A stretch of DNA of 64,000 nt from Patescibacteria group bacterium (GTDB taxonomy: Bacteria; Patescibacteriota; Patescibacteriia; UBA9934; GWF2-40-263), in NCBI GenBank assembly GCA_038065075.1, contig JBBTRQ010000001.1, positions 2,823 through 66,822 of the forward strand, given 5' to 3'. The translations under genes and the position numbers were made by a program. This document shows positions 21,694 to 64,000 of the stretch, one piece after another. Under the pieces are notes generated by a model. That model was not told where the DNA came from. It did not search any database and was given only the letters and a program-made list of their open reading frames with translations. How positions within the stretch are numbered: the stretch's first letter is position 1; every line of letters begins with the position of its first letter.

Positions 21694-21737
21694 AAAACCC
21701 TCGAACGAAAAACACTCCATGCTAGGTGGAGTGTTTT

Positions 21738-24128: not shown

Positions 24129-24205
24129 TGGTGGATGTTGGAGGACTCGAACCTCCGACCTCTGTCGTGTGAGGACAGCGCTCTAACCAGCTGAGCTAAA
24201 CATCC
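24129..24205 (-). tRNA. tRNA-Val (anticodon CAC), second copy with a different acceptor/T stem
   Basis: Reverse complement GGATGTTTAGCTCAGCTGGTTAGAGCGCTGTCCTCACACGACAGAGGTCGGAGGTTCGAGTCCTCCAACATCCACCA. Confidence 0.85.
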
Positions 24206-24283
24206 ATATATGCGAGCGACAGAGTAACACGGTGTGCACCCCTTTTCAAGAGCGGGTAGAATCGTTAGAATGAACCAGGAACT

Positions 24284-27983: not shown

Positions 27984-28526
27984 GTGAAAAAGTCAAACCA
28001 CTCTATGAAAGCCATCTTCGGCCTTGGCAACCCGGGAAAAGAATACGTTGGGACACGACACAACGTCGGGTTCTTGGTTGTCGATGAGTTGGCTCGCCGA
28101 TATGGTGGCGAATTTGCGAACAAGCGTTCGCTCGAGGCAGAGATCGCGGAAGTCCTGATCGACGAACAACGTGTTCTCCTCGTGAAGCCCCAAACCTTTA
28201 TGAACGTCAGCGGCCGGTCGCTGTCGGCCGTTCTCTCGAAGTATCCGGTGAAACTGGAGGAAGTGGTCGTGGTCTACGATGATGCCGACCTCCCCTTTGG
28301 CGATGTGCGCGAGAAGGCGAGCGGGAGTAGCGCCGGACATCGGGGCATGGAATCAATTCTCTCAACCCTTCCCAAAGGCTCGAGTGTTTCTCGCGTTCGT
28401 GTCGGCATTGGCCGGCCCACGCATCCAGATATCCCACTGGACGAATTCGTTCTCGCAAAATGGACCGCAGACGAACAAAAGCAGATCCCATCCGCCATCG
28501 ACTCGGCGATTGAAAAACTTGTATGA
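27984..28526 (+). CDS. pth: peptidyl-tRNA hydrolase
   Basis: FGLGNPG..Y..TRHNVGF. Confidence 0.9.
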   Translation: MKKSNHSMKAIFGLGNPGKEYVGTRHNVGFLVVDELARRYGGEFANKRSLEAEIAEVLIDEQRVLLVKPQTFMNVSGRSLSAVLSKYPVKLEEVVVVYDDADLPFGDVREKASGSSAGHRGMESILSTLPKGSSVSRVRVGIGRPTHPDIPLDEFVLAKWTADEQKQIPSAIDSAIEKLV

Positions 28527-29605
28527 CCGAGGCCGACCGACCATATTGGGTCGCACTTGCCCAGTTCCGGCCCTTCGGAGCTGTGCGGCTCTCACGGCTT
28601 GCACGTCGCTTTCCAACGATGGAGCGCGCATTTGGGGCGAGCGCGGTGGAGCTTGTCGAAGCCGGGATCGAACCGGAGATCGCCAGCCGTTTTTTACAAG
28701 AACGTATCCACATCAATCCGGAGGAACTCTCTCGCGAGCTTGAGGTCCATGGGGTTCGGCTGGTCACCATTCAAGACGCCATCTATCCACCGCTCCTCAA
28801 AGAAATTTACGATCCACCGGCGGTCCTGTTTGTGCGCGGTGTCCTGCCAGACCCCAACCGCAAACATCTCGCCGTGGTGGGTTCGCGCAAAGCGTCCAAG
28901 TACGGCCTGCGCGTCGTCGACGAACTGATCGAGCCGGTGGCGCGCGCGGGTGTGGTCATCGTGAGTGGCTTGGCGTACGGCATCGACGCGACCGCGCACG
29001 ACGCGGCTCTGCGCGCGGACGGGACGACGATCGCCGTCTTGGGAAGCGGTGTGGATCCTGAGAGTATCTACCCCTCCCATAACCGGGCACTGGCCTCGCG
29101 GATTCTTGCACAGGGTGGCGCTCTGATCTCTGAGTTTCCTCTGCATACCGCCCCGCTCACACAACACTTTCCGATTCGCAACCGTATCATCGCGGGACTC
29201 TGTCACGGCACGCTGGTCGTAGAAGCCGCAATCAAGTCGGGTTCGCTCATCACCGCCCGTTCAGCCATGGACTCCAACCGGGATGTGTACGCGGTTCCAG
29301 GATCCATCCATTCTCTGCTTTCAGAAGGCCCTCACGAGCTCATCAAAAATGGCGCCACGCCCGTGACCAAACCCGAGGACATCTTTGGCATTGAACCGAT
29401 GCCCGAACCTGTCGCGTCCTACCAACCGGTCAACGAAGAAGAAACACTCATCTGGTCGCGCCTGTCGCGCACGCCACTTCACGTCGACGAGCTGATCCGC
29501 TCCACACATCTGCCCACGCCCAAACTCTTGAGCACGCTCACGCTCATGGAAATGAAAGGCGGAATCCGTCACGAGGGAGGACAATTTTATACGCGTCACG
29601 CTTGA
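28523..29605 (+). CDS. dprA: DNA processing protein DprA/Smf
   Basis: VVGSRKAS.YG..V, SGLAYGIDA, Rossmann-like DprA core plus C-terminal wHTH. Confidence 0.85.
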   Translation: MTEADRPYWVALAQFRPFGAVRLSRLARRFPTMERAFGASAVELVEAGIEPEIASRFLQERIHINPEELSRELEVHGVRLVTIQDAIYPPLLKEIYDPPAVLFVRGVLPDPNRKHLAVVGSRKASKYGLRVVDELIEPVARAGVVIVSGLAYGIDATAHDAALRADGTTIAVLGSGVDPESIYPSHNRALASRILAQGGALISEFPLHTAPLTQHFPIRNRIIAGLCHGTLVVEAAIKSGSLITARSAMDSNRDVYAVPGSIHSLLSEGPHELIKNGATPVTKPEDIFGIEPMPEPVASYQPVNEEETLIWSRLSRTPLHVDELIRSTHLPTPKLLSTLTLMEMKGGIRHEGGQFYTRHA

Positions 29606-31969: not shown

Positions 31970-32002
31970 AACGCCCTGAGCTTGTCGAAGGGCGTTTTAT
32001 TT
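31970..32002. terminator. bidirectional intrinsic terminator between topA(+) and the 32003..32764(-) gene
   Basis: aaaacgccct-gagcttgtcgaa-gggcgtttt-atttttat. Confidence 0.7.
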
Positions 32003-34364: not shown

Positions 34365-34403
34365 CACGACCACGTCGCGTCATCCCGAGCTTGTCGAGGG
34401 ATC

Positions 34404-37255: not shown

Positions 37256-37374
37256 CATCTCACCACGACCGCCCCAGGCGGCCTGTCCCCCGAAGCTTCA
37301 CGCGAAGGGGGATTTTCTCTTTGTGGAAAATTATTGTTTCACTCTTCGACAAAAAAGAAGTATCCTATCTGTGT

Positions 37375-37901: not shown

Positions 37902-37978
37902 GGCTGGGTAGCTCAGTTGGTTAGAGCGTGGGACTCATAAGCCCGAGGTCGTGGGTTCAACTCCCACCCCAGCTACCA
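37902..37978 (+). tRNA. tRNA-Met elongator type (anticodon CAT; could be a lysidine-modified tRNA-Ile2)
   Basis: GGCTGGGTAGCTCAGTTGGTTAGAGC...CTCATAA...GGTTCAACTCCCACCCCAGCTACCA; G1-C72 paired. Confidence 0.8.
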
Positions 37979-50880: not shown

Positions 50881-51783
50881 GTGGTAACATACGCGTATAT
50901 GTTTACATCATTTGTTCGTCCGCTTGAGATCGGACTTTTTGCTCTCGTGTTTCTGGGAGTCGGTTGCTCAAGTACCCCGGTCCCTCTGCCGGGAACATGG
51001 AATTTCAATATGGAGGCATCTGCCACCAATCTCTCCGGGAGCGAGTGTGCCACGTCTGGTGGCTTTTCTTCCGGAGGTGAGGCTTCGGTGAACGTGAACG
51101 CACTTGGCGATATCGTAACTATGAATCTCAGCGGACAGACGATTGTCTTTTACGACCACCTTGCTCCTGGAGCTCAGTACAAAACCTATACGCGCACATT
51201 CCCGGTCTTAAACCCGGACGGAACGTCCGGAACAGGAAACGTCTGGTTTGATTTTACGGCCAACGATGAGGAAACACTCTCGGGAACATTGCATTGGAAC
51301 AACTTACGAGGATGTCGCGGAGATTATCCGTTTACCATGACTCTCTTGGAGCTTGAGCTCCCGGATCCTGGCCTGTACGTTCTCTCCGAGGGAACATGGG
51401 ACGTGAACATTGACAGTGTGGCCGACGACTGCGGCGCGGGAGCCGCGGGTATGACCGGCATCCCTGATCAGATCGATCTGAGTAATCCCGTTGATTTGGA
51501 TACCGGCGAGTCCATCACCGATGAACTCCTGCTCGATCCTTGGGGAGTCATCCTTGGTCGAGTGGCGAATACGAATGTCTTCACTCTAGGATCAGGGCCA
51601 AGTTTTGATCCTGGCTTACCACAGGATGCCGATGGGGATGTGAACCTCGACTTTGAAGATGTGACGTTCGATGCCACCATGGAAATGTGGGCCGATGGCC
51701 CTGACTCCGCCCTGGGAACCATCTATGCCTCCGGCGGGGGGTGCAACATCACGATGATGGTCAACATGAGCTTCAGCCCCTAA
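50881..51783 (+). CDS. secreted hypothetical protein
   Basis: N-terminal hydrophobic signal, Gly/Asp/Thr-rich. Confidence 0.45.
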   Translation: MVTYAYMFTSFVRPLEIGLFALVFLGVGCSSTPVPLPGTWNFNMEASATNLSGSECATSGGFSSGGEASVNVNALGDIVTMNLSGQTIVFYDHLAPGAQYKTYTRTFPVLNPDGTSGTGNVWFDFTANDEETLSGTLHWNNLRGCRGDYPFTMTLLELELPDPGLYVLSEGTWDVNIDSVADDCGAGAAGMTGIPDQIDLSNPVDLDTGESITDELLLDPWGVILGRVANTNVFTLGSGPSFDPGLPQDADGDVNLDFEDVTFDATMEMWADGPDSALGTIYASGGGCNITMMVNMSFSP

Positions 51784-51804
51784 AATCCCCCATGAGGGGG
51801 ACTT
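51782..51804. terminator. palindromic repeat family 1 hairpin (aaaaTCCCCCatgaGGGGGActt) between convergent genes
   Basis: Seen in sequence. Confidence 0.55.
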
Positions 51805-51806
51805 GG

Positions 51807-53264
51807 CTACTTGAGAAGCGTGGAGAGATCCAGGGTTTGATCGAAACGAATTTGTCGGACAAATTCCTCGGCGTGACTCACCACCAGCATACATCCTTGG
51901 TAGTCATTGAGTGCCTTGGCGATCACGGGAAGATGCCGAAAGTTAATGTGATTGGTCGGCTCGTCAAAGATAAGCAGTCCGGGTGCTTGAAGCACGAAGC
52001 GCGCAAAACACAGCAAGCCCTTTTGCCCCTCTGAAAGCGCCCCCACGGGAGTCGCCAGCGCGTCCCCGTCCAGCAAGAACTGCGCGCCTGTTCGACGAAT
52101 GGTTTCGTTATCCGGTTGCTCCATGACTTCAGAGAGTGAAGCGTAAGCGGTCTGGGAAAAATTCAATCCAGAAAAATCTTGTCGATAATACCCCACCTTC
52201 ACCCCCGGCGCAATCATCGCTCCCGGTGAATCTCCCTGTGCCAACGATCGCAACAGCGTGCTCTTTCCAATGCCGTTGGGACCCGCAACCAATAGATGCG
52301 TTCCACGACGCAACGACAGATCCACCTCCACATCATGCGCCTCATGGTCGCGGATTACTTTAATGGAACTCAGTCGCACGACCTCTTCGGTAAACGGTTG
52401 CGCGGGAATAGTGAAGTCCTTGATCGTTCGATCATCACGTCGCACATCCACCATGTTCTCTTCTGCTTCCGCGACCTCTTCGCGGAGCTTGCTGGCGAGC
52501 TTGCGCATCTTGCCTCCTTTGTGCGCAAAAAAGTTTACCTTGTCTTTGCGATCTTGAATGGTCTTCAAGAGCTGGGCGTTCTTTGCGCGATCGCGCTCCA
52601 CGCGCGCGGCGATCTCCTCCACCACGTCCGTATAATTTCCGTCGTACTTCTCGACCTTCCCTGTGTAGACATCCAAGTGCAGGACGCCCTCCGTGAAACT
52701 GTTCAAGAAATCGGCATCGTGTGAAATGACCAAGACCGTTTTGGGATACATGATGAGGAACATCGTGAGGTGATCGATCCCCTCGCGGTCAAGATTGTTG
52801 GTCGGCTCGTCGAGCAACAGAATGTCGGGCTCTTGAATGAGCGCGTAGGCCAGGAGAAGTCGCGCCTGCTGACCGCCCGAAAACGATCCCACCAGCTTCT
52901 CCAAGGGCGCGGTCAGATTCACCACCTCCAAAATGTCGGCAATCCGCTTATCAAGATTGTAGGGGACGTCGAGAAACGCTTGTGCAAAGTACTCGCGCAC
53001 GTTCAGAGTCAAACACTCACGCGCCATCACCTGCTTTGCCGTGGCAATGGTCGCGCCCGAAGAAAGATGCACCTGACCATAATCGGGTTTCACCTCGCCC
53101 GTGATGAGTTTAAAGATCGTGCTCTTGCCCGCGCCATTTTGACCCATGAGGGTCAGCTTCGCGTCTTCGCGAACAGAAAAACTCGCCTCATCCAAAATGG
53201 GGCTCTCTGAAATGTATCCGAAGGACACGGTTTCAAAGCGCAAGACGATATTTCCTGATGCCAT
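51807..53264 (-). CDS. ABC-F family ATPase (two ABC domains, no TMD)
   Basis: Two Walker A (GQNGAGKST, GPNGIGKST), two LSGGQ signatures, inter-domain linker. Confidence 0.85.
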   Translation of the reverse strand: MASGNIVLRFETVSFGYISESPILDEASFSVREDAKLTLMGQNGAGKSTIFKLITGEVKPDYGQVHLSSGATIATAKQVMARECLTLNVREYFAQAFLDVPYNLDKRIADILEVVNLTAPLEKLVGSFSGGQQARLLLAYALIQEPDILLLDEPTNNLDREGIDHLTMFLIMYPKTVLVISHDADFLNSFTEGVLHLDVYTGKVEKYDGNYTDVVEEIAARVERDRAKNAQLLKTIQDRKDKVNFFAHKGGKMRKLASKLREEVAEAEENMVDVRRDDRTIKDFTIPAQPFTEEVVRLSSIKVIRDHEAHDVEVDLSLRRGTHLLVAGPNGIGKSTLLRSLAQGDSPGAMIAPGVKVGYYRQDFSGLNFSQTAYASLSEVMEQPDNETIRRTGAQFLLDGDALATPVGALSEGQKGLLCFARFVLQAPGLLIFDEPTNHINFRHLPVIAKALNDYQGCMLVVSHAEEFVRQIRFDQTLDLSTLLK

Positions 53265-53325
53265 AGGCGGACACGATAGCGGATATTTCTCAAAACCTCA
53301 AGAATACGGCATGATAGAGAGAAAT

Positions 53326-54492
53326 ACACATCCTATGAGTCAACGCGCCTCCTTCATCGTTTCCCTGCTTGAATCCGCCGACATTCGTGTAAACGGCTCG
53401 CGGCCGTGGGATCTTCTCGTCCATGACGAGCGGGTGTTTGATCGCACGCTTGCAGAGGGGTCGCTGGGGTTTGGGGAGAGCTACATGGACGGCTGGTGGG
53501 ACTGCGAGGCATTGGATGAAATGCTCACGCGGGTATTTCGGTCCGACATCGACCGTCGCGTTCGAAACTGGCGCACGGCTCTGCGCGTTCTGGGCGCCCG
53601 CGCGCGAAACGCTCAGCGCAAGTCCAAAGCGTTTGAGATCGGTGAACGCCATTACGACGTCGGCAACGATCTCTACAAACAGATGCTCGACCCACGCATG
53701 ACCTACACGTGCGGATACTGGAAGAATGCGAGCGACCTCGCGAGCGCGCAGGAAGCAAAGCTCGACCTCGTGTGTCGCAAGATCGGACTGAAGCCGGGGA
53801 TGCGCGTCCTGGACATCGGATGTGGATGGGGATCGTTCGCCATCTATGCCGCGCAGAAGTACGGCGTGGAAGTCGTGGGTGTCACCGTCTCGAAAGAACA
53901 AGTCGCGCTGGCAACCGAGCGCGGCCGAGGACTGCCGATCGAATTTCGATTGCAGGATTACCGCGACGTGACCGGAACGTTCGATCGTATTGTGTCGCTG
54001 GGAATGTTCGAACACGTCGGCTACAAAAACTATCGAACGTACATGGAAGTGGCTCATCGACTGCTCCCTATCGAAGGACTCTTCTTGCTCCACACCATCG
54101 GCGGTAATCGTTCCGTGCACACCACAGACGCCTGGATCGAAAAGTACATCTTCCCAAACTCGATGCTACCGTCGATCGCGCAGATCGGAAGTTCCACCGA
54201 AGGCCTGTTCGTGATGGAAGACTGGCACAACTTCGGCACCGACTACGACAAGACCCTTCAGTGCTGGTACAAAAACTTTGAGGCCGCCTGGCCGGGACTC
54301 GCCGATCACTACGGCGACCCTTCGACGGAGCTCAGGGTCGGCCTGAGCCAGTCGAAGGCCGAACGCTTCCACCGCATGTGGCGTTTCTATCTTCTCTCCA
54401 GCGCCGCCACCTTCCGCGCGCGAAACAATCAGCTGTGGCAAGTGGTGTTAAGTAAGGACGGGCTCAAGAATAGCTATCAGTCGATACGTTGA
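53326..54492 (+). CDS. cfa: cyclopropane-fatty-acyl-phospholipid synthase (start 53326 or 53301; the track ORF start at 53146 overlaps the ABC-F gene)
   Basis: Collinear with E. coli Cfa: GESYMDGWW, VLDIGCGWG SAM motif, LL..GL..L.H. Confidence 0.8.
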   Translation, partial: THPMSQRASFIVSLLESADIRVNGSRPWDLLVHDERVFDRTLAEGSLGFGESYMDGWWDCEALDEMLTRVFRSDIDRRVRNWRTALRVLGARARNAQRKSKAFEIGERHYDVGNDLYKQMLDPRMTYTCGYWKNASDLASAQEAKLDLVCRKIGLKPGMRVLDIGCGWGSFAIYAAQKYGVEVVGVTVSKEQVALATERGRGLPIEFRLQDYRDVTGTFDRIVSLGMFEHVGYKNYRTYMEVAHRLLPIEGLFLLHTIGGNRSVHTTDAWIEKYIFPNSMLPSIAQIGSSTEGLFVMEDWHNFGTDYDKTLQCWYKNFEAAWPGLADHYGDPSTELRVGLSQSKAERFHRMWRFYLLSSAATFRARNNQLWQVVLSKDGLKNSYQSIR

Positions 54493-54522
54493 CGGCCGTG
54501 AGGGATCCCTTGCGCGGCCGTA

Positions 54523-54551
54523 TTGACATCACTGAGAGATTCGTGAATGAT
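54523..54551 (+). promoter_or_regulatory. sigma70-like promoter (TTGACA-17-AATGAT) and GGGAGG RBS upstream of the tandem-HTH gene
   Basis: Seen in sequence. Confidence 0.4.
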
Positions 54552-54583
54552 CGCTTGGGACAACACTGGCAAACGTCAGGGAG

Positions 54584-55645
54584 GTGATGATGGCCAAACA
54601 CATCAACTGGACACCCGGGATGGATGAGCGGCTCATCGTGCTCAACCGCGAACGCGTGTTCTTCCGTCTCATCGCGGAGGCCCTCGTGGTTCCGCTCGCC
54701 AGCGTGCACCGTCGCGTAAAGGTTCTTGACGCGCGGGGGCTCATCTCCGCGAACGAGGTCAGTCGATACTTCCCTCGCACCAAGCAGACTGTCTTCAAGT
54801 CCAGGGGACCCACCAAGTGGACGCCGGATCGGCTCGCGCGCGTTTCCGAACTCTACCGGAACGGGCACAGCAATGAGCAGATCACGACATTGCTCGGTGA
54901 GACCTGCTCGGCCATTCGAGGCCAGGTGCGCCTGCTGCGCAAACGCGGGGAGCTGCCAAGCGGGCCGCGACCGAGTCGGCACAGTGCACGCCCAAACCGG
55001 CGGATCTTCACCACACAGATGGATGAAACGCTCATCCAACTCCACCCAAGCAAGAGCCGGAATGAAATCGCGCAGGCTCTGGGCGTAACGCCCCGCCAAG
55101 TGACTACGCGTGCCAGCCAACTGCGCAAGCTGGGACATCTAGAGCCCTCGAAGATCGGAGTGGCACAACGCCGCGAAACGATCATCCGCCTGTACCGCGA
55201 TGGCCAGTCCATCGTGCAGATCGCGAAGGCGATCGGATCTACCCCCGGCGCGATTGGTGTCTCCTTGGTCAGATACCGCAAGCAGGGGTGCGTTGGAACC
55301 CGGCCGCGGCCATACACCGCCAACCGTAGCCACAAGGTCGACATGGAAACGGTTGTTGAGATGACATTGAACCACGTCTCCACCGCACAGATAGCGCAGT
55401 ACTTCGGGGCCTCCGAGCACACGATCCTCAAGCACGTCCAGCGGCTCCGCCGCGATGGAACGCTCCCGCGCCCAACGCGCGTCTGGACGAAGGAGCGCAC
55501 GCGACGACTGGTAACGCTCTACGGGAGACGCACGAAGATCCGCGTGATCGCACGCCTGCTGAACGTGAGCGAACGCGCCGTCGCTCACAAGCTCACGCGA
55601 CTGCGGAAGAAAAACCAACTCCCGAGCCGCAACGTCCGCCCGTAA
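54584..55645 (+). CDS. protein of five tandem about 60-aa GcrA-like HTH repeats (353 aa), GTG start
   Basis: Repeats W(T)..R...L..LY..G.S...IA..LG.T..AV..K..RLR..G.LP; high GC3. Confidence 0.5.
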   Translation: MMMAKHINWTPGMDERLIVLNRERVFFRLIAEALVVPLASVHRRVKVLDARGLISANEVSRYFPRTKQTVFKSRGPTKWTPDRLARVSELYRNGHSNEQITTLLGETCSAIRGQVRLLRKRGELPSGPRPSRHSARPNRRIFTTQMDETLIQLHPSKSRNEIAQALGVTPRQVTTRASQLRKLGHLEPSKIGVAQRRETIIRLYRDGQSIVQIAKAIGSTPGAIGVSLVRYRKQGCVGTRPRPYTANRSHKVDMETVVEMTLNHVSTAQIAQYFGASEHTILKHVQRLRRDGTLPRPTRVWTKERTRRLVTLYGRRTKIRVIARLLNVSERAVAHKLTRLRKKNQLPSRNVRP

Positions 55646-55666
55646 CAAGGGCGGTTTTTTGTTGGA
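55635..55666 (+). terminator. intrinsic terminator CCGCCC-gtaacaa-GGGCGG-TTTTTT after the tandem-HTH gene
   Basis: Seen in sequence. Confidence 0.7.
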
Positions 55667-55673
55667 CGTAATC

Positions 55674-55713
55674 CAAACAAACATCCCCCTCGTGTGAGGG
55701 GGATGTTTGTTTG
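55674..55713. repeat. palindromic repeat family 1 copy with a 16-bp perfect stem (caaacaaacaTCCCCCtcgtgtgaGGGGGAtgtttgtttg)
   Basis: Seen in sequence. Confidence 0.6.
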
Positions 55714-55719
55714 TCTTTT

Positions 55720-57342
55720 CTATTTAGCACCGCTGATTAATGTCTTTTCATCTAAAACGGAATCGATAACTCCTTCCTGAAAATAGAACGCCTGAATCTT
55801 TTTAAGCGCGGACAAAAATTCCCGCGTGTACGATTTGAGAAACCGTATTTTTTGCATAGCCATCTCAACTTCCTTTTGTGAAATTCCCATCATTGAGGCA
55901 ACGGAAGTGTTTGTCTTAAATCGCGCCCCGTGAAGAAGAGCCTCCCCCCAAATAGCGTTGAGTTTTTGAATCACGTCTTTGTGGTCTCTGATATATGACT
56001 TCTTGGTGATCAGAACATCGTACAAAATCTGATTTTCTTTTTCTTTGGTTGAGGCCACAATTTTTGCCCCTGAAAGTTCAATAGCTTTTGAAAGCCAGGG
56101 ATCCCATAATACCGCTGCGTCCACATCACCCCGGATCAAAGCTGACCCGATGTCACCCCCAAGCAGAGAAACCTCTTGAACGTCATCCGGAGAAAGGTGG
56201 TGAGCGTGCAAAAGATACCGTAAAAAGAAGTGACTCACGGCCTCACGTTCAATCCCCACTTTTCGTCCTTTCAAGTCCTGCACTCTCTCAATCCCGGGCT
56301 GAGCAATGATGGCGTCTCCCCCGTGTGAGTAGTTGAGTGGAAGAACGATCTGAAGTTCTGGATGTTCGTGAACGGCGCGAACGGCGTAATCCAATGTCAC
56401 GTTCAAGACATCTACCTCATCTCCCAAGAGCATTTCAAGATTCCCAACATTTGAGTCTGTCGAAACTAAGTGCGTTTCCAATCCCTTTTTTTCAAAGATA
56501 CCCTGATCGTGGGCATAGTACCAAGGAGCATTCCCCGACCAAATGAAGAGCCCTAGGTTACAGACCTCGGCCTTGGTTTTTTCCTTGCGCAACGAGGCCT
56601 TTATCGATTCAGCTCGGATCGTATAGACAATGCTCTTCTTCAGTCGGACAAACGCCGGAGAGAAGACCATCTCTGTTGTTCGAGGCCGTGGAAGGTTCAC
56701 GACTATTTCTTGCTGGAGTGCCCCTGTGTCCGCACTGAGAATCAATACCCGATCGGCCAAAAAAATCGCTTCATCGATATCGTGCGTCACAAAGATGATC
56801 GTTTTTTGTTGCTGTCTCCAAAGATCCAGAAGCTGTTCTTGAATTTGAGCTCGTGTTTGAACATCAAGAGCGCCAAATGGTTCATCGAAAAAGATCACCT
56901 CGGTGTTCTGCAACAAGACCCTAGCGATAGCCACTCTCTGACGCATTCCGCCTGACAGCTGACCTGGAAAATAATCCCGGACAGAAAATAGCCCAAGCTG
57001 CTTGAGTGTACTACTGATCAGCCCTTCATCAGCTTGAAGGTTCCCCAGTTGAACATTTTGCCAAACCGTTAACCAAGGAAAATTGGAATACTCTTGCGAA
57101 ACGAATCCAGCTGATTTTTGTGAGAAATACCTGTCTCGAGTCTCTCCGTCGATACGCACCTCTCCTTCACAGTCTGTATCCATTCCAGAAAGACAGCGCA
57201 AAAGCGTGCTCTTCCCTGAACCACTCGAACCCACAATGCAAACGAACTCTCCTTTTTTTACACGAAAAGAAATGTCGTTCAATACGACGCGCCTCCCCGA
57301 TTCTGAATCATACGTTTTTTTGAGTCCAGTCACCTCAATCAT
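55720..57342 (-). CDS. ABC transporter ATP-binding protein (SsuB/TauB/ThiZ-like) fused to a C-terminal NMT1/THI5-like substrate-binding-fold domain
   Basis: Walker A GSSGSGKST, LSGGMRQR, FDEPFGALD; C-terminal 280 aa NMT1-like. Confidence 0.8.
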   Translation of the reverse strand: MIEVTGLKKTYDSESGRRVVLNDISFRVKKGEFVCIVGSSGSGKSTLLRCLSGMDTDCEGEVRIDGETRDRYFSQKSAGFVSQEYSNFPWLTVWQNVQLGNLQADEGLISSTLKQLGLFSVRDYFPGQLSGGMRQRVAIARVLLQNTEVIFFDEPFGALDVQTRAQIQEQLLDLWRQQQKTIIFVTHDIDEAIFLADRVLILSADTGALQQEIVVNLPRPRTTEMVFSPAFVRLKKSIVYTIRAESIKASLRKEKTKAEVCNLGLFIWSGNAPWYYAHDQGIFEKKGLETHLVSTDSNVGNLEMLLGDEVDVLNVTLDYAVRAVHEHPELQIVLPLNYSHGGDAIIAQPGIERVQDLKGRKVGIEREAVSHFFLRYLLHAHHLSPDDVQEVSLLGGDIGSALIRGDVDAAVLWDPWLSKAIELSGAKIVASTKEKENQILYDVLITKKSYIRDHKDVIQKLNAIWGEALLHGARFKTNTSVASMMGISQKEVEMAMQKIRFLKSYTREFLSALKKIQAFYFQEGVIDSVLDEKTLISGAK

Positions 57343-58093
57343 ACTTTCTGTAAGGAAAGAATACGGGATACAACCTCTTAAACACCTGGTCGATCACAAG
57401 TCCAATGATTCCCAGTGTCAGAATCGCAACGTAAACTTTTTCTGTGTTGGAAAACCGTTGTGCCTCTTTGATCACATGTCCGATTCCTGCCTGGGCCGCA
57501 ACAAGTTCCGCGATCACGAGGTAGGTCCAGGCCCATCCCAACGTAATGCGGGCATTGTTGTACAGCTCAGGCAAAATGGCACGCAGCCTAAGAACTCTCA
57601 CTCGCATTCGTGAGAACCCCAATGAAAAAGAGAGGTCGAAGTATCTCGATGGAATGGTGTAGATGTCATCAATAACAAGAAGAATGAGTTGAAAAAATGT
57701 TCCGATAAACAGCAAAGCAATTTTCGATCCTTCTCCTAAACCAAAGAATAAAATCGTTAATGGAATCAACGCGGGAACAGGGAGGTAGCGAATGAAATCG
57801 ATGTACGGTTCAAGTAATCGTTTGACGAATGCAAACTCGGTCATGAGAAGCGCTAGTGGAATCGCGATAACGAACGCTAAAATGAAAGCAGAAAAAACAC
57901 GAAAGACAGAAATCCCAATATCTGATAAAAATTCTTTTTGAACAAACAAATCTAGTGTCGCCAACCAAATTTGCGACGGAGATGGAAGAAAGAGCGAATC
58001 GATCAGTCCCGCTCGCGTCACCCACCACCACACACAAATGAAAAAAAGCAGAGAGACAAGAAACGGCCAGTTCGCTCTCTGCTTTTTATTCAT
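57335..58093 (-). CDS. ABC transporter permease (SsuC/TauC/ThiX-like)
   Basis: 6 TM, EAA-like loop. Confidence 0.8.
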   Translation of the reverse strand: MNKKQRANWPFLVSLLFFICVWWWVTRAGLIDSLFLPSPSQIWLATLDLFVQKEFLSDIGISVFRVFSAFILAFVIAIPLALLMTEFAFVKRLLEPYIDFIRYLPVPALIPLTILFFGLGEGSKIALLFIGTFFQLILLVIDDIYTIPSRYFDLSFSLGFSRMRVRVLRLRAILPELYNNARITLGWAWTYLVIAELVAAQAGIGHVIKEAQRFSNTEKVYVAILTLGIIGLVIDQVFKRLYPVFFPYRKYD

Positions 58094-58110
58094 ACCCCTC
58101 CTTCTATCGT

Positions 58111-59094
58111 TTAGAATGATCGGATGATGGTATCTGTGAGGTGATCCTCAGCACGAATGCGAAGCGTTGCTCCTCCATTAGCTTCAAGGATGTCTCCAAC
58201 GAGCTCGAATGTATCGTAGGCATTGAATTCTGACGATGGATCAAAAAGAACCTTGTTCTCTTCAAGATCTAACCAACTGACACCCGTCTTAAAGTCAGCC
58301 ATTTCTTGTGCGCTCACCTCGAATGCGGTGCCCATAATCTCGTTCGCCTCATCAGGGTTTGACTTCCAGTATTCAACCGCATCAAACCACCCTTGAGCAA
58401 TAGTCCGAAGAACCTCTGGACGTGATTCAACCAGATCTTCAGAGGCGAAGAGAAAGTCCACAATAAGCTTTGGCGTATCCGCACTCGAGACAAGAACTTT
58501 TGCACCGGCAACCTTGCTTGCACTTTCAGAAAGGTAGGGCTCGTAGGTGGCGGCCACATCAAGCTGGCCCGCGACGAAGGCGTTTCCTGCGTCCTGAGAA
58601 GTCACATCTCGAAATTCGACATCATCCAGAGTCATACCCTCTTTATTGAGGAGATACTGCAAAATGAAATGCGGTGGAAATCCAGGTTCCGCACCAACGG
58701 TTTTACCTCGCAGATCCGAAAGCGAGTTAATGCCTTCTCGAACAACGACCCCATCTCCCCCATGGGACTCGTCGACGGCTAAGAAGGCAACCCCAGGTGG
58801 CTCAACCCCTTCCGTGGCTTCAAAAATATCATAGGTTGCTGCGTACATATCGATGTCTCCCGTCTTCATCGCCGCACGAAGATCTCCGATAGATTCAATG
58901 CGAACCAACTCAACAGTGAGATCTGACCCCCATAGCTCCTTTTCTTGTGCGAGATACAAAGGGGCATAGCCCGGGAATGTCACCATTCCAATCTTCACAG
59001 AATCCTTAGATGTTTCTGGGTTCTGAAAGGCAACGACCCCTAACACAACGACGATAACGATTACTAATAAACCGACGAAAAAGTTCTTGTTCAT
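58111..59094 (-). CDS. NMT1/THI5-like periplasmic substrate-binding protein (SsuA/ThiY-like)
   Basis: Signal anchor; NMT1-fold motifs. Confidence 0.75.
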   Translation of the reverse strand: MNKNFFVGLLVIVIVVVLGVVAFQNPETSKDSVKIGMVTFPGYAPLYLAQEKELWGSDLTVELVRIESIGDLRAAMKTGDIDMYAATYDIFEATEGVEPPGVAFLAVDESHGGDGVVVREGINSLSDLRGKTVGAEPGFPPHFILQYLLNKEGMTLDDVEFRDVTSQDAGNAFVAGQLDVAATYEPYLSESASKVAGAKVLVSSADTPKLIVDFLFASEDLVESRPEVLRTIAQGWFDAVEYWKSNPDEANEIMGTAFEVSAQEMADFKTGVSWLDLEENKVLFDPSSEFNAYDTFELVGDILEANGGATLRIRAEDHLTDTIIRSF

Positions 59095-59156
59095 ATTTTT
59101 GTTAGGTGAATTGATTAAATGATAGCATAAGCTTTAATGATTACACATATTTTGTG

Positions 59157-59924
59157 TTACTCTCCCTCGCTCAACGCGAACCACCAACGATCCATCGCAC
59201 CAAGCACCTGGCGAAACCCTCGAGCGAACTCCTCCTGTTTCGCTTCGTTGGTAAGTACGCCCGTCGCGCGCTCACGCAAGAAATCACGGTGACCGACTTC
59301 TAAGTCAACAATGTGGAGAGCAAACCAAGAGCTCATATCCATGGCGTAGGCTTCCTGTGCCGTCTTGATGGTAGGAAGGGCAAACGTTCCATCTTCCTGA
59401 AGGGCGACCTTCTTGATTGGTTCAGGCTTCCCTACCTTTGATGCATAAAGATTGATCGCCGGTCCCACGAGAATCGCAAGTTCAGGAACGGCTGACGCCT
59501 CGAGGGCAAAAGCCTGCCCCAGGGCGAACCAAGGGTTTTCTTTCATCCCATCAAGGACGGTGGCGATGAACTGTTCCGTTGCCCCAGAGCCTTTCACATG
59601 ATCAATATTGAGACTCAGATCTCGCTTCAGACCGTGCTTTAGAATCTGGACGTGGGCAATTCCACCCGTTTCTGAACCGCTCTCCTGTCCCCAGTTCCTC
59701 TCCAATTCCTGATGCACGGGGTGATTCTTTGGAAAATGAGCTGCTGCTCCACGAAGCATCTTCACAATCTCCTCAGGGAAACGCACATACTGACGGATCA
59801 CTTCCCCCAGCACCTCTGTTGGAAGAGAGCCGCTCTTTGCCTTCACAAACACAGGGTTGTTCTTCAAAAAAGTACGGTCAATCATCTCCGTGTTGAGTTG
59901 CTGAAAGAAGAGGCTGTTGGTCAT
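59157..59924 (-). CDS. TenA/PqqC-like heme-oxygenase-fold protein (possible thiaminase II)
   Basis: All-alpha composition, length about 255 aa, operon context with the THI5-like ABC system. Confidence 0.45.
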   Translation of the reverse strand: MTNSLFFQQLNTEMIDRTFLKNNPVFVKAKSGSLPTEVLGEVIRQYVRFPEEIVKMLRGAAAHFPKNHPVHQELERNWGQESGSETGGIAHVQILKHGLKRDLSLNIDHVKGSGATEQFIATVLDGMKENPWFALGQAFALEASAVPELAILVGPAINLYASKVGKPEPIKKVALQEDGTFALPTIKTAQEAYAMDMSSWFALHIVDLEVGHRDFLRERATGVLTNEAKQEEFARGFRQVLGAMDRWWFALSEGE

Positions 59925-60085
59925 ACAAATAATCCCGATGGGTCATGACTTATCCTCATCATCGAGGCAACATTGTAACGCCTTTTCGTATATTTTTCAA
60001 TGTACTTTCATGGTATTCCTATACGGAAACTTGATTATTTAGGTATTTGTTGCTATAATTGTGTATATAGAATCTATACACTTTA

Positions 60086-60840
60086 TGTCTATAAACGACC
60101 GGCTTGGACAAATTGGACTCAATCAGAGCGAGACAAAGGCATACTTGTTTCTTTTGGAACACGGCCTTTCCTCCCCCACGGCCATTGCCAAAGGAGTCGG
60201 GATACAACGGCCAAACGCCTATCAAGTTATCCATTCATTGTTACAACGTGGGCTCATCCTTGAGCAGAAGCAAGGCGGGCGAAGAGCCTACCTCACAGGT
60301 GACCCCGAGGCTCTCCTGATTGGTCTGGAACAAAAAAAGGCGCTGATCGACTCCCTACTACCCGATCTGCGCGGACTTCGGAATTTGCAGAAAAACAAAC
60401 CCACGGTTCAGTACTTCGACGGGCTGTCGCAAATTCAGGACATTTACCTGATGGCGTTGGAATCAGATGAACTCCTCGCTCTGGGATCGACCGACCGGCT
60501 CTATCAGATCATGCCATCCTTCGTTGAGGGTTGGTTGTCAAAGCTCAAAAAGAAAGGCATCGTCCTACACGATATTGTGACGCATGTCTCGAGTAGTGAG
60601 GCGGCGCACAAGATGATCGCCTCGCTTAAGGGGTACTACGATGCGAAGGTTCTGCCCAAGACGAGCGGTGAACTAACAACCGACATCCTTATTTGGGATA
60701 ACCATCTCGCCCTCATTACGCTTGAGGAGCCCTACTTTGGAACAGTGATCACAAACTCATCGCTTGTAAACACCTTCCGTCAGATTCTTAGCATTTTGCG
60801 CAGTGCTCTAGATAAAGTAGAGACATCTGTCCAAACCTAA
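60086..60840 (+). CDS. TrmB-family transcriptional regulator (start at MSINDRLGQ..)
   Basis: N-terminal wHTH ..SETKAYLFLLEHGLSSPTAIAKGVGIQRPNAYQVIHSLLQRGLI. Confidence 0.65.
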
Positions 60841-61122
60841 ATCCCCCTCGTGTGTGAGGTGTGCGCCACATGAGGCGCAAGTGATCTCCGTTCTCACACC
60901 GTCTGCATCCAGTGTGCGTTTCACAGCGCCGGGAATCTCGTCATCAAAACTTGGCCACCCGCAGTGGGCGTCGAATTTATCTGCAGAGCGATACAACGGC
61001 GCGCCGCATTGTCGACACACATACGTCCCTGCCGCTGTTGTGTCGACATACTCACCGCTAAACGGCGCCTCGGTACCTTTGTCGAGGATGACGTACTGTT
61101 CTTCTGGGGTGAGTTCGATCAT
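60808..61122 (-). CDS. msrB: peptide-methionine (R)-S-oxide reductase MsrB with a divergent C-terminus (repeat-derived)
   Basis: Two CxxC zinc pairs, CGWPSF; C-terminal ..HLTHEGDLGLDRCLYFI encoded across a family 1 repeat copy. Confidence 0.75.
   Translation of the reverse strand: MIELTPEEQYVILDKGTEAPFSGEYVDTTAAGTYVCRQCGAPLYRSADKFDAHCGWPSFDDEIPGAVKRTLDADGVRTEITCASCGAHLTHEGDLGLDRCLYFI
60841..60862. repeat. half-degenerate palindromic repeat family 1 copy (aaaTCCCCCtcgtgtgtgagg) embedded in the msrB 3' end / trmB-like stop overlap
   Basis: Compare with 55684-55707. Confidence 0.5.
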
Positions 61123-61240
61123 ATCGATTCAACGTTTTAGAGTGGCTATCACGAAATGTACCAAAGATCACGGGGAACAGGGATCATCTCTCACGTTATC
61201 CCCAGCCTTTCTTATTCTTGCTTGACAGGTCTATCTTGCT

Positions 61241-61258
61241 GTACTAGCGTACTAGTAC
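61241..61258. promoter_or_regulatory. TrpR-type operator GTACTAG-CG-TACTAGTAC (CTAG boxes 8 bp apart) overlapping the promoter (TTGACA at 61223-61228) of the TrpR-like gene
   Basis: Seen in sequence; mirrors the E. coli trp operator ACTAGTTAACTAGT architecture. Confidence 0.55.
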
Positions 61259-61269
61259 ATTGATACTCT

Positions 61270-61605
61270 ATGATTGAAGACTCCTCCTGGCGCCGAGAAC
61301 TTTACGCCCTTCTGAAAATCGCGGGGAAAGACGCCGACCTCTTGAAAGACGTCCTGAATGACCTGCTCACTCCTGAAGAAATCTCCGTTCTGGCACAGCG
61401 GTGGCAGATCGTGAAAGGACTCGCCCAAAACAGGCCACAGCGCGAAATCGCTGAAGAACTCGGAGTCGGTATTGCGACAGTCACACGTGGAGCACGATTA
61501 CTCAAAAAACCTCAAGGCGGCCTACGCCGCATGATCGATATGATCCATTCAACCAAAACCTTCCGAGGACTTCCCAAGTCCTGGCGCGACCAACTCATGG
61601 AATAG
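61270..61605 (+). CDS. TrpR-like YerC/YecD-family DNA-binding protein
   Basis: LLTPEEISVLAQRWQIVKGL..QREIAEELGVGIATVTRG. Confidence 0.75.
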   Translation: MIEDSSWRRELYALLKIAGKDADLLKDVLNDLLTPEEISVLAQRWQIVKGLAQNRPQREIAEELGVGIATVTRGARLLKKPQGGLRRMIDMIHSTKTFRGLPKSWRDQLME

Positions 61606-61680
61606 TCCTTGAGCTAAGGTTTGCGTTTCTAGAACGATCGCCTGACTCATGGGCGGTCGTTTTCTGTTCACGAGGTTCCC

Positions 61681-62265
61681 ATGCACGTTCGTCTTCTCAC
61701 CTCCATCCCCTCCCTCCATGACGCCATCCTCTCCGCCTCGGAGGGGTTCGGCCAGCCCATCGACCAGGCATTGAGTCTGGACGTGGCACAACACCTGGAC
61801 GCCTGCGGCTTCGGCTTCCAGTTCCTGACCGACGAGAACGAGATCGCCGGCTTCACTCTGTTCAAGCACTACGGCTCACTGCTGTACGGCGGCGGCATGA
61901 TGATCCGCCCCGCCTTCCAGAAGTCGGGTCTCGTCCGGCAGGGCATCCTGCTCGCGCAGGAACACACCCACGCCCGCCACTTCGCCTTCCGCACCCAGTC
62001 GCCGCGGATGTGGTCCGCCGGCCGTCGCGTGACCCGGCTGTGGTCGCCCACGCCCGAGCAGGGATTCTTCCACCCCGAGCTCGACGAGGTGCGCTCCATC
62101 GCGGCTGACCTCCTGCACATCAAGCCGACGGTGACGCGCGCGGTGTTCGACCGCCCGCTCTACGGGCAGAAGCCCACGCACCTGAATCCCGCCATCCAGA
62201 CGTGGTGGGACTCGATGTGCGACTTCGACAAAGGCGACATGGTTCTGTGTGTCGGCGCGTTCTAA
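61681..62265 (+). CDS. hypothetical protein, possibly GNAT-fold acyltransferase; GC3 very high
   Basis: ORF track; weak GNAT motif A (RPAFQKSGL). Confidence 0.3.
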   Translation: MHVRLLTSIPSLHDAILSASEGFGQPIDQALSLDVAQHLDACGFGFQFLTDENEIAGFTLFKHYGSLLYGGGMMIRPAFQKSGLVRQGILLAQEHTHARHFAFRTQSPRMWSAGRRVTRLWSPTPEQGFFHPELDEVRSIAADLLHIKPTVTRAVFDRPLYGQKPTHLNPAIQTWWDSMCDFDKGDMVLCVGAF

Positions 62266-62312
62266 CGCCTGTGGGTCGAGGGCTCCGGCTCTCGACCCAC
62301 TCATCTTCTTCT

Positions 62313-63041
62313 ATGAAACTCTATCAATCATCTTCTCCTCGCAAACCGTTCCTCTCGATCGTTGCCTGCCAACACGGCAATGAACCGTTCGGCCGCGAGA
62401 TTATCGAAGCCCTTCGCCCACGACTCGAGGAATTCCCCGGCCTGCAACTCATCGTCGCCAACGAAGAAGCTCTCGCGATCGACCAACGAGGAGTCGAGGG
62501 AGATCTGAATCGTTCCTGTCCTGGTGAACCATTGGGAAATCATGAATCCCGTCTGGCGAATGAAATCCTCGGACACGTCCGAGAAACGCGATACCTTCTA
62601 GACATCCATACATCGGTTTCCTCCTGCGGGTTCCTCGTCCCCATTGTGGCCGAGCTCAATGACGAAACCCGCCAGCTGATCAATCTATTGGAGCCAACAC
62701 GCGTCGTCTGCATTGAGCGTCCACTCTCAGGCACATCACTCATCGGAAATGTGAAAGCAGGTCTCTCTCTCGAATTTCAAAAAAGCCTCGCTGACCAAAC
62801 CGCGATCAAATTGACGACGAAGCTTGTTGAGGATCTCTATGATTGCCGCCGAGCACCAACTCGAGCACGGGACGTCTTCATGGTCACAGGGATTCTGGAG
62901 GCTGACCTTGTGCTTCCCGACACCGCTCGAGACTTTGAGCTCGTCGAGAAACTCGGCCTCTATCCCGTCTTGCTCAAAGACCCAAGCTACATGGGAAACC
63001 AGGGTCTGAAAGCAACAAGAAAAGAGGTGATGAACCTTTGA
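62313..63041 (+). CDS. succinylglutamate desuccinylase/aspartoacylase (AstE/AspA) family zinc hydrolase (start at MKLYQSS; the track start at 62202 overlaps the previous gene)
   Basis: QHGNEPFG, DLNRSCPG, E..D.HT motifs. Confidence 0.7.
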   Translation: MKLYQSSSPRKPFLSIVACQHGNEPFGREIIEALRPRLEEFPGLQLIVANEEALAIDQRGVEGDLNRSCPGEPLGNHESRLANEILGHVRETRYLLDIHTSVSSCGFLVPIVAELNDETRQLINLLEPTRVVCIERPLSGTSLIGNVKAGLSLEFQKSLADQTAIKLTTKLVEDLYDCRRAPTRARDVFMVTGILEADLVLPDTARDFELVEKLGLYPVLLKDPSYMGNQGLKATRKEVMNL

Positions 63042-63046
63042 GTTTC

Positions 63047-63070
63047 AAAAATCCCCCGCGAGGGGGATCT
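63047..63070. terminator. palindromic repeat family 1 hairpin (aaaaaTCCCCCgcgaGGGGGAtct) between convergent genes
   Basis: Seen in sequence. Confidence 0.55.
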
Positions 63071-63359
63071 AGGAAACGGTCACCTTGAGTTTTGCTTCTA
63101 AAGCATCGGCGACTTTGTAAAGGAACCCGACGGTTGGGTTGTATGTCCCGGACTCGAATCGAGAGATTGCCGCCTGCTTGGTGCCGATCATCTGTGCGAG
63201 CTGACCTTGCGTCACACCCTTCTTGAGTCGTCTGTCGATTAACATCTGGATCACGGCAAACTCCGGACCCAGCTCGTCGTAGGCCTTCTTTACGATCTTG
63301 TCTGTCAGGAATTTCTTTTTGAGAGACGTATACGATTTCATACATTTTGAATATAACAC
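63069..63359 (-). CDS. XRE-family HTH protein (HigA-like antitoxin)
   Basis: ..LKKGVTQGQLAQMIGTKQAAISRFESG.. Confidence 0.7.
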   Translation of the reverse strand: MLYSKCMKSYTSLKKKFLTDKIVKKAYDELGPEFAVIQMLIDRRLKKGVTQGQLAQMIGTKQAAISRFESGTYNPTVGFLYKVADALEAKLKVTVS

Positions 63360-63369
63360 ATCTGTTATA

Positions 63370-63528
63370 TCACGTCACCTCGTCACCGACTTTCTTGCTA
63401 TGTGGCATCCCAAGACGGTGACCAAACATCTCAAGCAGATCAAACGTCCGCAACACTTTGGCAATGGTTGCCTTCTCAAGTGATGCGATGAATTGTTCGA
63501 TCTCTTGGTTGAAAAACCGAATCTCCAT
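63370..63528 (-). pseudogene. truncated Gp49/HigB-like RelE/ParE-superfamily toxin (N-terminal about 52 aa only)
   Basis: MEIRFFNQEIEQFIASLEKATIAKVLRTFDLLEMFGHRLGMPHSKKVGD matches the N-terminal half of Gp49-like toxins, then a stop; the ORF-track start at 63579 runs through a repeat hairpin. Confidence 0.5.
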
Positions 63529-63545
63529 AGTTCGTTCATGGTACC

Positions 63546-63574
63546 AAAAATCCCCCCGCGAGGGGGTTTTAAAA
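63546..63574. terminator. palindromic repeat family 1 hairpin (aaaaaTCCCCCCgcgaGGGGGtttt) immediately after the stop of the 63569..63832(-) gene
   Basis: Seen in sequence. Confidence 0.55.
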
Positions 63575-63832
63575 TTCACGATTCACGATCTGACCCTTGG
63601 GCCTTTCTTTCTTTGGAGGAGGCATGACTTGGACATCAATCTTTTCAATCGCCTTTGGACCGATGTTCGACGACTCCAACTCGCTGATCTGCTGAGAAAA
63701 TTCTTCGACGGTCATCTCTTGTGGATCACGACCTGGGATAGTGACCAAGACGCGGGTGTCAGGAGACAACGTATCAAGAAGTCCAAGGACACTTTCTCGT
63801 TTGTACGCAAATATTCCGTCGTGTGTTTCCAT
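63569..63832 (-). CDS. hypothetical protein (87 aa)
   Basis: ORF track only. Confidence 0.3.
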   Translation of the reverse strand: METHDGIFAYKRESVLGLLDTLSPDTRVLVTIPGRDPQEMTVEEFSQQISELESSNIGPKAIEKIDVQVMPPPKKERPKGQIVNREF

Positions 63833-64000
63833 AGGGATTCTTCTAGGCTACCACAAATCTCCTATGAGGGGATCATCGGCAACGGTCGATCTCCAGGAAG
63901 AAGGTAATCAGACGTCTTCCACTGACTCGTTCCGATCGTCACCATGACCGACAAGCGCCTCATGCTTCCGCTGTGTGTGCCAACAGGTCTCTCCCCAGCT

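Follow-up and report, generated by a model that had tools for sequence, protein, structure and literature searches.

A sequence-conserved, terminator-like hairpin, often joined to an extended -10 box, probably separates the genes of a variable island in a Patescibacteria genome

Introduction

Among the repeats with which a hairpin at gene ends may be compared, repetitive extragenic palindromes (REP) occur in high copy number across extragenic space, often in clusters of alternating orientation, and the REP-associated tyrosine transposase (RAYT) is a Y1/HUH transposase. The attC sites of integrons measure 57-141 nt, consist of R''/L''-L'/R' arms with an RYYYAAC/GTTRRRY core and go together with an integrase, IntI, at the head of the array, and the Rickettsia palindromic elements (RPE), of 100-150 nt, lie in frame inside genes. 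The present study concerns a family of hairpins of the form TCCCCC-N4-8-GGGGGA in a stretch of 64,000 nt (hereafter the window) from a Patescibacteria group bacterium (assembly GCA_038065075.1, contig JBBTRQ010000001.1, positions 2,823 to 66,822). To our knowledge, almost nothing has been established experimentally concerning the transcription signals of Patescibacteria, or Candidate Phyla Radiation (CPR), and our literature search found no paper joining Patescibacteria and intrinsic terminators.

In Mycobacterium, the motif TRIT represents a mostly bidirectional terminator of conserved sequence, present in 147 copies across the M. tuberculosis genome; it is centred ~8 nt inside the coding sequence, has been reported as restricted to Mycobacterium, and its conservation led its authors to suspect an additional binding factor (PMC3152330). 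In Neisseria and Pasteurellaceae, inverted pairs of DNA uptake sequences (DUS) double as Rho-independent terminators (PMC2397512). Judging from sequence comparison, we consider it likely that the hairpins described here constitute one lineage-specific, sequence-conserved intrinsic terminator, often fused to an extended -10 promoter, which separates the genes of a toxin-antitoxin (TA) and defence island.

Results

The Hairpin Family and Its Placement

The window (G+C 55%) contains three exact matches to TCCCCC-N4-8-GGGGGA (51786, 55684 and 63052) against 0.03 expected, a number that 0 of 100 shuffles reached. A relaxed scan (C4+/G4+) added a fourth copy at 63552, and the two decayed copies proposed by a first-pass annotation, made from the letters alone, lie where it had placed them, so the family it described is real. 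One of these, at 60841, has 14 nt in common with the 55684 copy (ATCCCCCTCGTGTG) and is 83% identical to it over a 30-nt stretch; the other, at 63855, was recovered by a repeat search as a one-mismatch relative of the family (67%).

Our material extended past the window end. L205, the reverse complement of window positions 53569-73832 (window coordinate = 73833 minus L205 position), adds 9.8 kb, and L227, which represents the same strain in a second assembly and is 100% identical to L205 across 9.2 kb, adds a further 9.8 kb, bringing the sequence covered to ~84 kb of the source contig. An nhmmer family profile built from 27 copies gave eight matches with E<1e-6 in the window and extension, all between 51.8 and 73.8 kb. 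Five strong copies lie past the window end, at window-equivalent positions 69268, 70276, 71004, 72768 and 73738, and decayed copies were found there at 71982 and 69887. Weak matches were obtained at 55684, 71982, 69887, 63855 and 60841; the last two (nhmmer E 1.2 and 1.9) are weak alone, and their assignment leans on context. The copies within the window are the following.

51782..51806, minus strand: copy 1, tagCCAAG-TCCCCC-TCAT-GGGGGA-TTTT; nhmmer E 6.9e-07; -17.8 kcal/mol (minus strand)
55674..55713, no strand assigned: long-stem variant, CAAACAAACA-TCCCCC-TCGTGTGA-GGGGGA-TGTTTGTTTG; perfect palindrome, U-rich tail present on either strand
60841..60862, minus strand: half copy, CCTCACACACGA-GGGGGAT-TTAGG; loop, 3' arm and flank of a 55684-like copy kept
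63046..63068, minus strand: copy 4, tag-ATCCCCC-TCGC-GGGGGAT-TTTT-G; nhmmer E 2.2e-07; -17.4 kcal/mol, z -4.6
63526..63571, minus strand: full module, hairpin CCCCC-TCGCG-GGGGG at 63552-63567; nhmmer E 2.9e-07
63830..63877, minus strand: decayed module, hairpin ATCCCC-TCATA-GGAGAT with one mismatch; -10 kcal/mol, z -1.8

The copies had also been described as placed at gene ends, and this was borne out: three occupy convergent gaps (23, 74 and 27 nt), one begins 2 nt past a stop codon and one abuts the TrmB stop. Copy 1 (51786) fills the 23-nt gap from the stop of an unknown plus-strand gene (51783) to the ABC-F stop (51807). The long-stem variant (55684) sits in the 74-nt gap between a multi-HTH gene, itself provided with a canonical terminator at 55636-55660, and an ABC ATPase/NMT1 gene. 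Copy 4 (63052) begins immediately past the stop of an HTH_3 (HigA-like) gene, in the 27-nt gap to a convergent AstE/AspA-like gene. The hairpin at 63552, which follows the stop of an 87-aa gene, is succeeded by a T-run (63547-63551), an extended -10 box (TGGTACCAT, 63538-63546) and the ATG (63528-63526) of a HigB-like gene. The decayed module at 63855 lies 83 nt downstream of the RecQ stop and has the same order, with TTTG, a -10 box (TGGTAGCCT, 63845-63853) and an ATG at 63832 of the 87-aa gene. The half copy at 60841 lacks the arm on the msrB side and has no stable fold; on the plus strand it directly adjoins the TrmB stop codon (60838-60840).

Strand, T-run and Fold

On the plus strand every copy has an A-run on its 5' side, and the minus strand reads ATCCCCC-loop-GGGGGAT followed by TTTT or TTTTT. 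The minus-strand loops are alike (TCAT, TCATC, TCGC, TCGCG and TCACACGA), and the U-tract is TTTT at 51786, TTTTT at 63052, 63552 and the five extension copies, and TGTTTGTTTG at 55684. The earlier description of terminator-like hairpins without T-runs was therefore right as to terminator anatomy and wrong as to the T-runs, which exist on the minus strand (ATTTT/ATTTTT).

All eight strong copies and five decayed ones lie on the minus strand, the same as the genes upstream of them; in the window these genes are ABC-F, HTH_3 (HigA-like), the 87-aa gene and the ABC ATPase. Between stop codon and hairpin lie 0-10 nt in five of the eight strong copies and 55-195 nt in the three that follow gene remnants. 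Fold energies range from -10 to -18 kcal/mol in eight copies (51786, 63052, 63552 and the five in L205), with z-scores of -2.6 to -4.6 in most copies. The palindrome at 55674-55713 folds into an 18-bp stem with -34 and -32 kcal/mol on the two strands (z ~ -9.7; nhmmer E 0.09, both strands).

A Longer Unit with a Promoter-Like Box

When aligned, the copies form the unit A-TCCCCC-TCAT(C/G)-GGGGA-TTTTT-GG-TA(G/C)nnT, followed after ~8-10 nt by ATG. In same-strand gene arrays the T-run leads straight into GGTAnnnT, and the whole junction unit is ~40 nt long. In the information profile of 26 distinct copies, conservation is confined to a block of ~26 nt with sharp edges, the sequence on either side being random, and L205 contains eight copies of a 30-nt direct repeat and five of a 52-nt repeat.

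The boxes TGGTAGAGT, TGGTAGGAT and TGGTACCAT all match the extended -10 element TGnTAnnnT, which is carried by the modules at 63552, 63855, 69268, 72768 and 73738. Across the window and extension, 20 of the 66 occurrences of TGnTAnnnT fall within 40 nt upstream of annotated starts, compared with 1.3 expected from position alone, an enrichment of ~15-fold with a commonest distance of 9 nt. Many ordinary genes of the window have the same box arrangement with unrelated hairpins upstream. The pattern suggests that extended -10 promoters and near-leaderless mRNAs are the rule in this genome.

The copies in convergent gaps (51786, 55684 and 63052), together with two of the eight copies in L226, a related metagenomic locus described below, keep the hairpin and T-run and have neither -10 box nor ATG. 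The retention of hairpin and T-run alone between convergent genes fits a terminator and argues against a pure promoter element. Furthermore, of the ABC-F orthologues that were examined from related CPR genomes, about one third (counted by eye) have an unrelated canonical terminator right after the stop, which indicates that the site 3' of this gene is a normal terminator position. The first 51 kb of the window likewise contain ordinary terminators with diverse stems, for example AAAACGCCC...GGGCGTTTT after topA.

A few other hairpins of the window recall parts of this layout. At 20281-20310 (minus strand), upstream of the gene for an 897-aa beta-helix protein, AAAAATCTCCAAGCTAGTCTTGGGGATTTTTGATATACT shows a hairpin, T5 and TGnTAnnnT, with family-like outer bases and a different stem interior (family profile E 7). 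At 37286-37313 (plus strand), TCCCCC is followed by a 15-nt loop containing GAAGCTTC and by GGGGGATTTTCTCT; this hairpin has family-like arms and a T-run, but its loop is long, it reads on the plus strand and it lies away from gene ends, in a divergent gap between two unknown genes. In addition, the 11-mer GAGCTTGTCGA (31978-31988 and 34387-34397) is the loop sequence in two distinct bidirectional terminators, topA/u253 and relA/rce1-like, and is present twice in coding sequence (28649 and 30285). The two terminators may belong to a second small family of related terminators.

Distribution of the Family

The family profile found nothing convincing in window 1-51 kb (core genome), and in the 9.8 kb beyond 73.8 kb, which hold a Type I restriction-modification (R-M) operon and Bro-N, there were no copies. 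For a comparison with relatives, 80 related CPR loci (1.19 Mb) were collected through the ABC-F protein, whose closest species representatives are Candidatus Uhrbacteria and other Patescibacteria; the profile gave nothing below E 1.6 in them. These representatives make the source an uncultured CPR bacterium, which we treat as a groundwater member of Uhrbacteria. None of the related CPR loci examined shares neighbouring genes with the window, even L125 (84% identity), the exceptions being L127 and L128 with weak (45-51% identity) DUF5671 and MsrB matches, and comparison with this set was possible at the ABC-F 3' end only.

When metagenomes were scanned with a strict 23-mer, 10 stretches were returned, originating in Hainich and three JGI samples. 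CAYHTY010000001.1 (GCA_964359885.1) and several Hainich groundwater contigs encode the AsnRS protein of the window. L226 (10.9 kb) contains eight copies, all in gene direction, separating Fic/DOC, TspO, HTH_3, a YgjP-like fragment, DUF5680, a C39-like peptidase, HigB/HigA and a 94-aa membrane protein. The stretches L205-L212, which carry the same gene from other samples, are identical at the hairpins 63052, 63552 and 63855. In L222, a relative with 81-90% amino acid identity, copies are absent at the ABC-F and msrB 3' ends; the lack of a copy after ABC-F there indicates that the copies at core-gene ends are young.

The Truncated msrB and HigB-Like Genes

Two genes adjoining the copies are incomplete.

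60808..61122, minus strand: msrB, 3'-truncated, 104 aa; ends ..CGAHL-THEGDLGLDRCLYFI*; SelR profile positions 1-91 of 116
63370..63528, minus strand: HigB/Gp49-like toxin fragment, 52 aa; Pfam Gp49 positions 2-40 of 90

The window msrB is without the catalytic Cys motif. The MsrB of L222 (81% identical) retains a full C-terminus with RHCVNS, followed by an unrelated terminator, whereas the window gene has lost ~35 codons, and with them the near arm of the hairpin. The junction of msrB and hairpin falls at CCTC, which is common to msrB (CAC CTC) and the hairpin (CCCCCTCAC), and we infer a microhomology deletion. On these grounds msrB is a pseudogene and the 60841 piece a deletion scar rather than a hairpin tolerated in a working protein. 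The first-pass annotation, which saw this copy inside the msrB C-terminal codons, was thus correct about the overlap and about the abutted TrmB stop; what it took for a coding C-terminus is a scar in a truncated gene.

The HigB-like fragment aligns from its first residue (ATG 63528) to an intact 103-aa Gp49-family protein of L226, being 78% identical to residues 1-49 of that homolog, and its 3' half is missing. The toxin gene is therefore decayed, as had been proposed, with 52 of ~103 aa left. The gene thus starts at ATG 63528, as the module layout predicts, and hairpin 63552 is upstream of it and not inside it; the overlap with the first HigB-like codons reported earlier came from a longest open reading frame (ORF) call (63370-63579, GTG start).

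The Variable Island and Its Cassettes

From ABC-F to the R-M operon, the minus strand carries an ABC transporter operon, the truncated msrB, HigA, the HigB fragment, the 87-aa gene, RecQ and SNF2 helicases, a hydrolase, CopG/BrnT, a YgjP fragment, Zeta toxin and a PD-(D/E)XK protein. The cassette array is bordered by a Type I R-M operon (hsdR, hsdM, a 940-aa unknown gene and hsdS) and Bro-N at L227:1-9171 (~74-84 kb window-equivalent). In relatives the core neighbours DUF5671, RecO and ABC-F are shared and the content and order of cassettes differ; both L218 and L222 have a variable hot spot downstream of DUF5671/RecO.

The PDDEXK, 94-aa membrane protein and YgjP-like cassettes follow the block in the source contig, L217/L221, L222 and L226, with different upstream neighbours, and the upstream flank of copy 73738 recurs in L218 ahead of a different gene; cassette breakpoints were judged by eye, from few pairs and without statistical testing. 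Several copies have the residue of a gene 3' end ahead of them (u87-like in three cases, a 50-nt flank in two), which implies that the block multiplied at least partly by segmental duplication and decay.

Public gene calls in 54464-55684 comprise two minus-strand ORFs (224 and 181 aa) without domains, one of which starts inside hairpin 55684. On the plus strand, a 353-aa ORF (54584-55645) has repeated HTH domains (HTH_28 at 1e-16). The two minus-strand calls look spurious.

Other Features of the Window

Positions 1-8961 (minus strand) are the 3' part of a 3592-aa gene with T4SS_pilin/Big_5/TIG/VWA domains, which runs off the window start and for this reason is missing from ORF lists. Intergenic repeats with tRNA-like sequence (GCTCTAACCAACTGAGCTA) are found at 20315-20420, 21734-21775, 24157-24227 and 37908-37918; by their sequence they are probably several tRNA genes or fragments.

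Discussion

How the Junctions May Work

Read on the minus strand, the terminator unit would consist of a C/G stem of 5-7 bp, a loop of TCAT or TCGC type and four or five U. Where the next gene is on the same strand, the U-run may at the same time provide the T-rich sequence that borders an extended -10 promoter (TGGTAnnnT) on its upstream side; this promoter, lying ~9 nt ahead of the ATG, would give a near-leaderless mRNA, and each such junction would then end one transcription unit and start the next. Between convergent genes, the hairpin and T-run alone would halt transcription arriving from one side or from both. The copies would mark junctions of the island between TA, defence and accessory genes, the block having been multiplied by duplication, truncation and reshuffling of cassettes. 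The sequence, position, orientation, fold energy, conservation and distribution of the copies are direct observations, from which we infer termination, promoter activity, leaderless translation and the mode of spread of the block.

Several observations weigh against reading the hairpins as a terminator. The fold of the 63552 copy does not surpass that of shuffled sequences (z -0.4), and the commonest variant, TCCCCC-TCAT-C-GGGGA, has five or six stem pairs, a 6-nt loop and ~-11 to -13 kcal/mol, which is modest for a terminator. The stem is invariant across copies, with zero compensatory changes to back an RNA structure, and the block is more conserved in sequence than a simple terminator requires, and than the adjoining untranslated regions of homologous cassettes. 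Conservation at this level leaves room for concerted evolution or recent spread, for a factor, such as a protein, that reads the sequence specifically, or for use of the block as a recombination junction. Part of the apparent conservation stems from copy selection, the metagenome copies having been collected with a strict 23-mer query. Finally, the hairpin spans ~-35 to -20 of the adjoining promoter, which is also an operator-like position.

Alternative Explanations

The sequence conservation bears on two other readings, both of which we regard as unlikely. It is rather doubtful that the 26-nt block ATCCCCCTCATCGGGGATTTTTGGTA is a specific site of cassette exchange, duplication or deletion, or the target of a dedicated nucleic-acid-binding factor; were this true, the locus would represent an integron-like CPR cassette system that uses a terminator-promoter junction with no recognisable integrase. 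The block would then be a crossover point, used through homologous recombination or a site-specific enzyme of unrecognised kind, and we give this equally little credence, although it is compatible with the block also being terminator and promoter. Homologous cassettes do follow the block with varied upstream neighbours, as in the case of the 73738 flank and L218, similarity breaks near the block on both sides, the island is rich in truncated genes and remnants that abut copies, and the cassettes, mostly in one orientation and TA-rich, resemble chromosomal integron arrays. However, neither an integrase nor any other recombinase is present in the 84 kb or in L226, the block is without any attC features, and cassettes that bear their own terminator and promoter would make any conserved repeat resemble a junction. 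Somewhat less probable still is an operator, that is, a palindrome ATCCCCC-N4-5-GGGGGAT bound by a dimeric protein (e.g., an HTH protein of the island) that controls the extended -10 promoters from -35. Sequence is conserved rather than pairing potential alone, the -35 to -20 position would suit such a role, and HTH_3, CopG, TrmB, TrpR-like and multi-HTH genes lie nearby. On the other hand, about one third of the copies have no adjacent promoter and lie between convergent stop codons, the half-sites are spaced variably, 4, 5 or 8 nt apart, the T-run shares the conservation of the palindrome, and placement directly after stop codons would be unexpected.

The first-pass annotation had favoured an active REP/RPE-like system and had called for a RAYT to be sought. 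A mobile palindrome of REP or miniature inverted-repeat transposable element (MITE) kind, copied into extragenic sites by a RAYT or similar enzyme and seen at gene ends as tolerated insertions, would account for a family that is sequence-conserved, extragenic and lineage-specific, the differences from L222 at ABC-F and msrB would reflect quick site turnover, and the perfect long palindrome at 55674-55713 looks recently made. Nevertheless, we find this explanation distinctly improbable. No PF01797-type (Y1 transposase, RAYT) or other transposase or integrase domain is recorded in the gene domain lists for window ~6.6-83.7 kb, a single orientation tied to transcription replaces alternating clusters of the kind seen in bacterial interspersed mosaic elements (BIME), 51 kb of core genome contain zero copies, and neither target-site duplications nor GTAG-type heads were seen. 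The flanking remnants shared by copies point to segmental duplication and not to insertion of the hairpin alone, and no copy in frame was confirmed. The proposal thus found no support on either its REP or its RPE side.

It remains to consider whether unrelated GC-rich hairpins have come to resemble one another by chance, or by converging on a stable stem. In unrelated phage contigs, terminator hairpins with C5/G5 arms and flanking A and T are often encountered, and other CPR genomes contain a few such hairpins. The pattern AAATCCCCC-N4-8-GGGGGAT was common in phage contigs, with TTT on both sides in ~1/4 among the matches listed; a tighter pattern gave only four viral matches, all plain terminators. 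Yet the copies have their loop sequence, flanks and 3' GGTA box in common, the exact matches exceed expectation as stated above (3 vs 0.03), and the profile finds none in the 1.19 Mb of relatives. Chance or convergence is therefore extremely improbable, being refuted by motif statistics, repeat search, family profile and information profile. A CRISPR-like array was also rejected, the spacing being irregular (0.3-5.4 kb).

We thus favour a conserved intrinsic terminator often fused to a promoter. The locus offers a testable picture of CPR transcription, with terminators made of a GC hairpin and U-run, -10 boxes ~9 nt before starts and a block reused at island junctions. If confirmed, the block could serve as a marker for such islands and for cassette boundaries in metagenomes. 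In addition, gene calls were corrected with respect to the HigB start, the truncated msrB and spurious antisense ORFs.

Comparison with Known Systems

Like REP and BIME, the family consists of short imperfect palindromes, extragenic, repeated and located at gene 3' ends; it differs in its U-run and promoter box, its constant orientation and its spread over one island within 84 kb. With integron arrays it shares a hairpin-capable repeat at cassette 3' ends, mostly in one orientation, many TA or unknown cassettes, and a content that varies between relatives. In contrast to attC, the block is 16-26 nt long and has no AAC/GTT cores, the cassettes carry their own promoters, and no IntI/integrase domain was found in the 84 kb or L226.

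The idea of a repeated palindrome is all that the family has in common with RPE, its copies being 16-40 nt and intergenic. Copies in frame in topA and asnS had been counted as members, and the family profile matches neither; asnS 43391 was discarded as a weak, chance-level match, and 43246 is the own terminator of asnS, with a different stem. RPE-like sequences were nevertheless encountered. L186:3050-6173 (JAGVFQ010000048.1, Patescibacteria bacterium DeMMO2_29) contains six copies of AATCCCCC-nnn-CCCCCTTTAT(C/T)AA(A)GGGGG within two long ORFs (2751-3995 minus, 4614-6149 plus), which translate them in frame as ..PPLIKGARGI.. or ..NPPTPPLLKGA..; another CPR genome thus carries an in-frame palindromic insert of RPE-like kind. 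The sequence at topA 30813-30843, CCCCCCCTGCCCGAGGGGGGGCTAGGGGGGG, has an L186-like layout (C-run, 8 nt, G-run, CTA, G-run) and encodes SPPARGGARGGG, an insertion of 5-6 aa in a variable loop relative to the solved mycobacterial TopA (6pcm). The topA insertion is possibly an RPE-like in-frame element as well.

As in DUS pairs, a short conserved word forms a terminator as an inverted pair. DUS and uptake signal sequences (USS) differ in that single copies are strongly over-represented genome-wide, within genes too. A DUS-like reading was rejected, as the half-site GGGGGAT is not over-represented by itself: it occurs 12 times vs 7.4 +/- 2.7 expected, a number that nine of 100 shuffles attain, and seven of its occurrences fall within family copies. 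Relevant to this rejected idea of an uptake sequence, the transformation-related DprA gene (28523-29605, plus strand) adjoins topA.

Canonical bidirectional intrinsic terminators share with the family a GC hairpin and U-run just past stop codons, often in short convergent gaps, with an A-run 5' and a T-run 3', and the energies of the family are in their usual range. Canonical terminators, however, differ between genes, window 1-51 kb being a case in point, whereas here one sequence occurs at least eight times in 22 kb and recurs in other genomes, fused to a promoter box. A cmscan of L205 (20 kb, eight copies) against Rfam 15 at E<=1 returned 0 matches, and assignment to a known RNA family was rejected. 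TRIT differs from the family in its unrelated sequence and in having neither a fused promoter nor a restriction to an island. Like the family, TRIT is a lineage-restricted hairpin, conserved in both sequence and structure, mostly bidirectional and tightly placed at gene ends. If confirmed, the Patescibacteria hairpin would be the second sequence-conserved terminator after mycobacterial TRIT, and it raises the question of a factor that reads it specifically.

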